Source: Escherichia coli
GTDB taxonomy: Bacteria > Pseudomonadota > Gammaproteobacteria > Enterobacterales > Enterobacteriaceae
Reading direction: 5' to 3' (one strand)
NCBI RefSeq assembly: GCF_003334785.1
Contig: NZ_QOWV01000025.1
Length of the DNA stretch: 41,323 nucleotides
The translations under genes and the position numbers were made by a program. Position 1 is the first letter of the stretch. Every line of letters begins with the position of its first letter. Below are positions 1 to 318 of this stretch, in pieces. The notes below the pieces were generated by a model. That model made no database searches. It worked only from the letters and a program-made list of their open reading frames with translations, and was not told where the DNA came from.

Positions 1-21
1 GCTTTCAGCTCACTGTCGCGA

Positions 22-57
22 GGTGGCGTATATTACGCTTTCCTCTTTCAGAGTCAA
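22..57 (-). promoter_or_regulatory. rRNA operon P2 promoter (rrnD-like), transcribing leftward out of the window
   Basis: Minus strand reads TTGACT (52-57), 16-bp spacer, TAATAT (30-35), then ACGCCACCTCGCGACAGTGAGCTGAAAGC, which resembles the rrn P2 promoter and leader as I recall them. Confidence 0.8.
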
Positions 58-138
58 CCCTGAATTTCAGGATTTTTTTCTCTTCGTTGTTCCGACCATC
101 CTGTGAAGTGTTTCACGTTGTCGTCTCAACGGAGGCGC

Positions 139-166
139 ATTATAGGGATCCCAATTTTTTGCACAA
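139..166 (-). promoter_or_regulatory. rRNA operon P1 promoter (rrnD-like) with GC-rich discriminator
   Basis: Minus strand reads TTGTGC (161-166), 16-bp spacer, TATAAT (139-144), followed by GCGCC discriminator, the hallmark of stringently controlled rrn P1 promoters. Confidence 0.75.
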
Positions 167-318
167 GTATTTTTTTGATCTTTTTTTCTGTTTGTTGTTT
201 TTTCACCCTTTTTGCTGCAATCGCACACAAAACGGTGCTTTTTTGCATACTAAAAGACTTGCACAAGGCCAATAATGCCCCCAAAGTCATTAGTAAATCA
301 TTTATTGCTGAGGTAAGT
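167..318. promoter_or_regulatory. AT-rich region upstream of rrn P1 (UP element and probable Fis sites) that also holds the divergent yrdA promoter
   Basis: Long A/T tracts immediately upstream of the P1 -35; placement relative to P1 matches known rrn upstream activating regions; individual sites not resolved. Confidence 0.5.

Follow-up and report, generated by a model that had tools for sequence, protein, structure and literature searches.

The 318 nt that lie to the left of yrdA in this stretch of Escherichia coli DNA (41,323 nt in all, hereafter the window) raise the question of what they encode. A mechanical ORF runs through part of them into yrdA (103..873, with a GTG start and 256 aa), and the preliminary description, which was made from the letters alone, read the same region as the control region of an rRNA operon, with tandem P1 and P2 promoters on the minus strand. 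We hold it very close to certain that positions 1-318 carry the promoters of the rrnD ribosomal RNA operon, P1 and P2 in tandem on the minus strand. The rrsD-yrdA intergenic region has served experimentally as the rrnD promoter region (PMC7045392), and rrnD is known to have both a P1 and a P2, with Fis sites upstream that activate P1 (PMC5110994). The features of the region are collected in Table 1.

Table 1. Features of the rrnD promoter region and the start of yrdA, by window position (minus-strand features are given in the direction in which they were recorded).
Feature	Position	Strand	Remarks
rrsD-yrdA intergenic region, rrnD promoter region	1-318		promoters on the minus strand, yrdA diverging on the plus strand
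Leader hairpin, 5' half	1..19	-	cut by the window edge; boxB position
P2 predicted transcription start, C	22..23	-	7-8 nt past the -10; in register with rrnB P2
P2 -10 hexamer TAATAT	35..30	-	same in rrnE and rrnH; TATTAT in rrnA, B, C and G
P2 spacer		-	16 bp between -35 and -10
P2 -35 hexamer TTGACT	57..52	-	invariant in all seven rrn operons; kept across genera
A-rich tract and palindrome CCTGAAATTCAGG	58..81	-	directly upstream of the P2 -35; common to rrnE and rrnH
Non-coding 5' extension of the mechanical yrdA ORF	103..318	+	artefact
P1 predicted transcription start, G	130	-	9 nt past the -10; in register with rrnB P1
P1 discriminator GCGCCTCC	138..131	-	G+C-rich; GCGCC invariant in all seven rrn P1
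P1 -10 hexamer TATAAT	144..139	-	invariant in seven E. coli strains
P1 spacer		-	16 bp between -35 and -10
P1 -35 hexamer TTGTGC	166..161	-	3/6 match to the consensus TTGACA
P1 UP element CAGAAAAAAAGATCAAAAAAATA	~190..167	-	83% A+T; near-invariant across genera
Conserved block GCAAAAAGGGTGAAAAAACAACAAA	191..215	-	cross-genus conservation
Candidate promoter-proximal Fis site GGGTGAAAAAACAAC	208..194	-	prediction; centre -71, the position of rrnB site I
Candidate yrdA promoter TTGCAC / 17 bp / CAAAGT	259-264 / 282-287	+	putative; conservation across genera
Candidate distal Fis site GGGGCATTATTGGCC	267..281	-	prediction; centre -144, aligns with the rrnB 15-mer GAACAATTATTGCCC (centre -143)
yrdA Shine-Dalgarno GAGG	310..313	+	5 nt before the ATG; conserved across genera
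yrdA CDS	319..873	+	184 aa, gamma-carbonic-anhydrase-like hexapeptide-repeat protein (RefSeq)

The identity of the locus follows from direct comparison. Base for base, the window equals positions 3428918-3470240 of K-12 MG1655 (NC_000913.3) save for four SNPs (window 4019, 16253, 19798 and 36672), none of which falls within 1-318; K-12 rrnD has the same sequence over 1-318, and it has the same flanking genes and operon as the window. The four differences from MG1655 amount to P209S in dprA/smf, synonymous changes at R20 of rpsE and N15 of rpmC, and D16G in gspO. Over its first 25 kb the window has 100% identity with several wild E. coli isolates, strain BR1220 among them, and the variants at 4019, 16253 and 19798, which lie in this part, are also present in wild isolates identical over that stretch, indicating that these three are natural variation. 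The first 1000 bases have matches in all 5426 complete E. coli genomes, many of them at 100% identity (K-12 MG1655 included), and the rrnD promoter region itself was found in 5424 of the 5426, with at least 95% identity in nearly all. By the K-12 annotation, the window begins with yrdA, yrdB, aroE, tsaC, yrdD, smg, smf/dprA, def, fmt and rsmB, continues with trkA, mscL, arfA, zntR, yhdN and the alpha, spc and S10 ribosomal protein operons, and ends with the gsp cluster, bfr, bfd, chiA and the end of tufA. When the whole window was scanned with Rfam, the only match at gathering score was Alpha_RBS (RF00140, 102.7 bits) at 13522-13633 on the minus strand, a known element that acts as the S4-binding translational operator upstream of rpsM; the same scan reported nothing for the leaders of the S10 or spc operons. 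Nor did it report anything within 1-318, which is what a promoter and a cut-off leader would lead one to expect.

The rRNA genes had been predicted to lie to the left, outside the window, and in reference genomes this is where they are. In the K-12 RefSeq annotation, 155 bp separate window position 1 from the start of the 16S rRNA gene on its left, and the K-12 sequence there matches Rfam RF00177 at full length with 1580 bits. Six divergent E. coli strains have the same distance of 155 bp, as does BR1220, which shows no difference from the window over 25 kb. The gene order in both K-12 and BR1220 is 16S, tRNA-Ile, tRNA-Ala, 23S, 5S, tRNA-Thr, 5S, which identifies the operon as rrnD. The window itself is without rRNA sequence, and the link to 16S is drawn from other genomes that are 100% identical over its first 1-25 kb. 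Measured in K-12, the 5' end of mature 16S lies 285 nt downstream of the predicted P1 start (G130). The leader between promoters and 16S is cut by the window edge: when the K-12 sequence was folded across this edge, a hairpin was obtained (GCGAC.AGUGAGCUGAAAGCCGCGUCGC, -13.5 kcal/mol), followed by CUGCUCUUUAACAA. Compared with shuffled sequence the hairpin is not thermodynamically exceptional (z = -1.06), and the leader to the left of it is near-identical in all seven rrn operons in our alignment. From what is established on rrn antitermination, we take this hairpin to be boxB and TGCTCTTTAACAA, directly past the window edge, to be boxA, with boxC also just outside, to the left. The arrangement expected of an rrn antitermination leader, a hairpin and then boxA TGCTCTTTAACAA, is thus seen in K-12, and positions 19..1 are the only portion of it that falls inside the window.

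On the minus strand, all motifs of the P1 that had been proposed from the letters (TATAAT, GCGCC and an A+T-rich upstream element) were found in place. The region has what marks an E. coli-type rrn P1, namely TATAAT with a GCGCC-type discriminator, a 16-bp spacer with a TTG-type -35, and an A+T-rich UP element. The P1 motif CCCTATAATGCGCC occurs once in the 41-kb window, even when up to two mismatches are allowed (0.19 expected). The segment from -60 to -38 is 83% A+T, and on the plus strand positions 167-190 are 71% T and 8% A. This UP element (167..190) is presumably the site contacted by alpha-CTD, a role that is predicted here for rrnD from its sequence. The rrnD P1 UP element has been cited in earlier work (PMC5664571; bioRxiv 2020.02.05.936344), a role has been stated for the discriminator (PMC4696680), and the -10 hexamer of rrnD P1 has been mutated from TATAAT to TCTAAC (PMC5110994). 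A generic sigma-70 scan reported P2 and did not report P1; since the P1 -35 matches TTGACA at only three of six positions, this is a limit of the tool and not evidence against P1.

The proposed P2, TTGACT-16-TAATAT, is likewise present, and its -10 hexamer is followed on the minus strand by ACGCCACCTCGCGACAGTGAGCTGAAAGC, which reaches position 1. Its 28-nt core pattern was found once in the window (0 expected, from 100 shuffles). From the P1 start to the last base of the P2 -10 there are 100 nt, in keeping with the position of rrn P2 promoters about 100-120 bp downstream of P1. The A-rich tract and palindrome directly upstream of the P2 -35 are possibly the upstream element of P2. Across genera the A-run of this segment is conserved and the palindrome arms are not kept complementary. 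On the plus strand the same segment can be drawn as a hairpin (59-71) followed by T7 and facing yrdA, and we considered it as a terminator of antisense transcription; this was rejected, as the frequency of such a structure is near chance and the arms are not complementary in other genera.

When about 470 bp upstream of the 16S gene of each of the seven K-12 rrn operons were aligned with window 1-318, the window was identical to rrnD, and the promoter cores proved common to all seven: the P1 core CCCTATAATGCGCC, the 16-bp spacer, and the P2 core TTGACTCTG...GCGTA(A/T)TAT. This bears out the suggestion that the region would align with the E. coli rrn promoters. Specific to rrnD, in contrast, are its P1 -35, its UP element and what lies beyond them upstream; identity to the other operons is 52-60% in the P1 core and 21-63% in the UP segment. 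The P1 promoters of rrnD and rrnB are alike in TATAAT, GCGCC, the 16-bp spacer, a start 9 nt past the -10 and a UP element at -60..-38, and their candidate Fis sites would correspond at -71 and about -143. They differ in the -35 (TTGTGC, 3/6, in rrnD vs. TTGTCA, 5/6, in rrnB), the discriminator (GCGCCTCC vs. GCGCCACC) and the UP element (A-tracts AGAAAAAAAGATCAAAAAAA vs. AAAATTATTTTAAATTT); the P1 core from -41 to +1 has only 52% identity between the two, and the P1-P2 distance is about 10 bp shorter in rrnD. They also differ in the start itself: the position aligned with the rrnB P1 start is G in rrnD and A in rrnB and the other five operons. ATP initiates at six out of seven rrn P1 promoters, and rrnD P1 activity rises with GTP (PMC9239199), a response with which the G at this position is consistent. 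With respect to P2, the closest relatives are rrnE and rrnH, whose P2 block (-45 to 10 nt past the -10) is 100% identical to that of rrnD and whose P1-P2 spacer is similar; a median of three BLAST places per genome was obtained for this reason. Unlike in P2, rrnE and rrnH depart from rrnD in the P1 -35, the UP element (21-42% identity), everything upstream and the neighbouring genes.

For the Fis sites upstream of P1 we took the rrnB centres to be -71 (site I), -102 and -143. With a crude Fis-consensus score these three were among the ten best 15-mers of rrnB, the one at -102 only in a tie at 9/15. Applied to rrnD the score was not discriminating, and many 15-mers tied at 9/15, including the candidates at -71 and -144, both of them of the form G...C. 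Both are therefore given in Table 1 as predictions. Activation of the rrnD promoter by Fis and binding of Fis to it have been described (PMC4696680; PMC5110994), and deletion of fis lowers the activity of the rrnD promoter least among the seven operons (PMC4696680). This effect stands beside a very strongly conserved A-tract UP element, and we imply no relation between the two.

Conservation was followed within the species and beyond it. Among seven E. coli strains with 96.4-100% identity, the sequence from the P1 -35 through about +29 was invariant and P2 showed one substitution, in its spacer. Scanning one genome per species with the pattern TTGTGC-N13-CCCTATAATGCGCCTCCG yielded 41 loci, and 35 of them, all in Enterobacteriaceae, had a divergent yrdA upstream; genera with this pairing of P1 and yrdA include Escherichia, Citrobacter, Kosakonia, Atlantibacter, Trabulsiella, Siccibacter, Phytobacter, Pluralibacter and Enterobacter. 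Most genera keep 152-153 bp between the P1 -35 and the yrdA ATG, and a few have 140 bp; of the 13 loci that extend at least 300 nt past +1, 11 have their 16S start 280-308 nt after it. Several parts were near-invariant although the pattern did not force them: the 13 spacer bases, the UP element (AAAAAAAGATC.AAAAAA) and the block at 193-215. For the UP element this was read from 26 sequences in about 15 genera.

Three further observations were made on these loci. The remaining six, all from Vibrio (L017, L024, L028, L031, L034, L055), have the 24 specified bases of the P1 core (TTGTGC-N13-CCCTATAATGCGCCTCCG, then TTG), with different spacers and upstream A/T tracts and without yrdA, which suggests that the rrnD-type P1 variant is old or recurrent in Gammaproteobacteria. 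In Trabulsiella odontotermitis strain 01 (L052) the 16S 5' end lies 1455 nt past the P1 start, vs. about 285, and P2 had no match; an insertion in the rrn leader may account for this. Many of the draft-genome contigs that begin at an rrnD-type promoter (among loci L016-L056) are about 26-27 kb long, probably an artefact of assembly breaks at the rrn operon and at another repeated gene, possibly tufA/tufB.

Two other explanations of the promoter motifs themselves were weighed. Hexamers of this kind could arise as functionless, promoter-like matches in any AT-rich intergenic region, and the consensus scan by itself would agree with this, having found one promoter where 1.7 were expected in shuffled sequence. 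We nevertheless reject chance outright, because this sequence agrees at every base with the rrnD promoter region that has been studied experimentally, and the extended motifs, each found once in the window where about zero were expected, are kept across genera. A different possibility is that the promoter is intact and that the canonical rrnD genes do not follow it in the source strain, the operon being hybrid, truncated or rearranged. The window ends inside the leader and the genes downstream are not directly visible in it; in a W3110-type inversion between rrnD and rrnE this promoter drives a hybrid operon (PMC4696680), the displaced 16S of the Trabulsiella locus suggests an insertion, and in Nissle 1917 the 16S is annotated as 'too short'. 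On the other hand, the region is carried by all but two of the complete E. coli genomes, 16S is exactly 155 bp away in every genome examined, including the strain identical to the window over 25 kb, and an inversion would still leave an rRNA operon downstream. We therefore consider a non-canonical operon very improbable, and continue with the intact rrnD operon as the preferred reading.

The third alternative concerns the ORF and not the promoters: that the 256-aa frame is a genuine long isoform of YrdA, so that part of 103-318 is coding. The frame is indeed unbroken and has a GTG start. However, E. coli YrdA in the PDB (3TIO) aligns to residues 74-256 of the 256-aa ORF (E = 1.4e-120), and no PDB homologue of the ORF covers residues 1-65, the coverage of all of them starting at about residue 66 or later. 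RefSeq annotates yrdA at 319..873, a good GAGG precedes that ATG, and by tblastn 34 of the 35 yrdA-bearing loci of other genomes match from YrdA residue 1. Among E. coli strains there are one-base A-tract indels within 103-318, some of which would put the extension out of frame with yrdA, and among genera anything from 1 to 111 codons stay open in frame ahead of the ATG. The extension also overlaps the P1 core, the UP element and homopolymer tracts. A long isoform is, in our view, even less probable than a rearranged operon, to the point of being barely credible; yrdA starts at ATG 319 and the 103-318 extension is spurious. The preliminary description was thus right that the ORF track carries yrdA too far, to position 103. 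Promoter sharing as such does not lead to this, and the link that the description drew to the AT-rich upstream region holds through base composition. The yrdA strand is T-rich and A-poor (16-20% A over 1-258) as a consequence of the A-tracts on the rrn strand, and stop codons are therefore few in 103-318.

A further ORF call was encountered on the opposite strand. Some RefSeq genomes carry a PGAP 'hypothetical protein' on the rrn strand that lies across the P1 core, UP element and Fis region (window 126-290, minus strand). It corresponds to a 54-aa ORF in the window and to 78 aa in strain MS14384 (L013, 454-690, minus strand), where the greater length may be due to an extra A in an A-tract. 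This is almost certainly a spurious call.

Where yrdA is transcribed from is a separate matter. A mapped yrdA promoter or start was not found in the literature searched, in which the sole find uses the intergenic region as the rrnD promoter (PMC7045392). Between 225 and 309, CTTGCA (258-263) and CAAAGTC (282-288) are the only well-conserved blocks across genera, and within them TTGCAC and CAAAGT, each matching the consensus at three of six positions, form a weak sigma-70-like pair about 25 nt upstream of the yrdA ATG. The consensus promoter scan did not report this pair, which brackets the distal Fis-like site at 267-281. Judged by their sequence, the two blocks could be the yrdA promoter, part of the upstream activating region of rrnD, or both; an overlap of the two functions would follow from the distance of only 152 bp between the P1 -35 and the yrdA ATG. 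A more specific proposal is that the blocks are a yrdA promoter bracketing the Fis-like site, that a single Fis-bound segment serves both promoters and ties yrdA to growth phase, and that the near-fixed spacing of 152-153 bp reflects this shared architecture; we regard this as rather unlikely, and offer it tentatively. We also noted a 9-bp direct repeat, TTGCACAAG, at 158-166 and 258-266 on the plus strand, exactly 100 bp apart; the first copy, read in reverse complement, is the P1 -35 region, and the second lies in the conserved CTTGCA block. The repeat was not retained as meaningful, as it is at chance level (about 0.2 expected in 318 bp, by estimate).

Taken together with what is known of rrn operons, the region would work as follows. 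In each rrn operon P1 is the major, growth-rate-regulated promoter and P2 is basal, and the regulators acting on them include the UP element, the discriminator, Fis, H-NS, Lrp, DksA, ppGpp and the initiating NTP (PMC4696680). At rrnD, RNA polymerase with sigma-70 would start at the tandem promoters P1 (+1 at G130) and P2. P1 would be strong and growth-rate-regulated, combining a consensus -10 with a poor -35, a spacer that is short at 16 bp, and a G+C-rich discriminator; such a combination would be expected to make the open complex short-lived and sensitive to the initiating NTP (GTP for rrnD) and to ppGpp/DksA. The weak P1 core would be compensated by the A-tract UP element, through the C-terminal domains of alpha, and by the upstream Fis sites. 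P2, with its predicted start about 107 nt further downstream, would give basal expression. Transcripts from both promoters would run leftward through the boxB-boxA-boxC leader into 16S, tRNA-Ile, tRNA-Ala, 23S, 5S, tRNA-Thr and 5S. Divergently, yrdA, with its coding sequence beginning at ATG 319, would be transcribed from a probably weak promoter within the 152 bp that also hold the UP element and the candidate Fis sites.

The P1-P2 region of rrnD is already known and is textbook biology, and its presence here opens no new question. It is among the most intensively studied bacterial regulatory regions, with respect to growth-rate control, the stringent response, UP elements and activation by Fis, and the nucleolus-like clustering of rRNA operons has been reported to need the rrnD P1 region as its cis element (PMC5110994). 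Recognizing it is of help in annotation, as it accounts both for the over-extension of yrdA by ORF callers and for the PGAP 'hypothetical protein' placed over the promoter.
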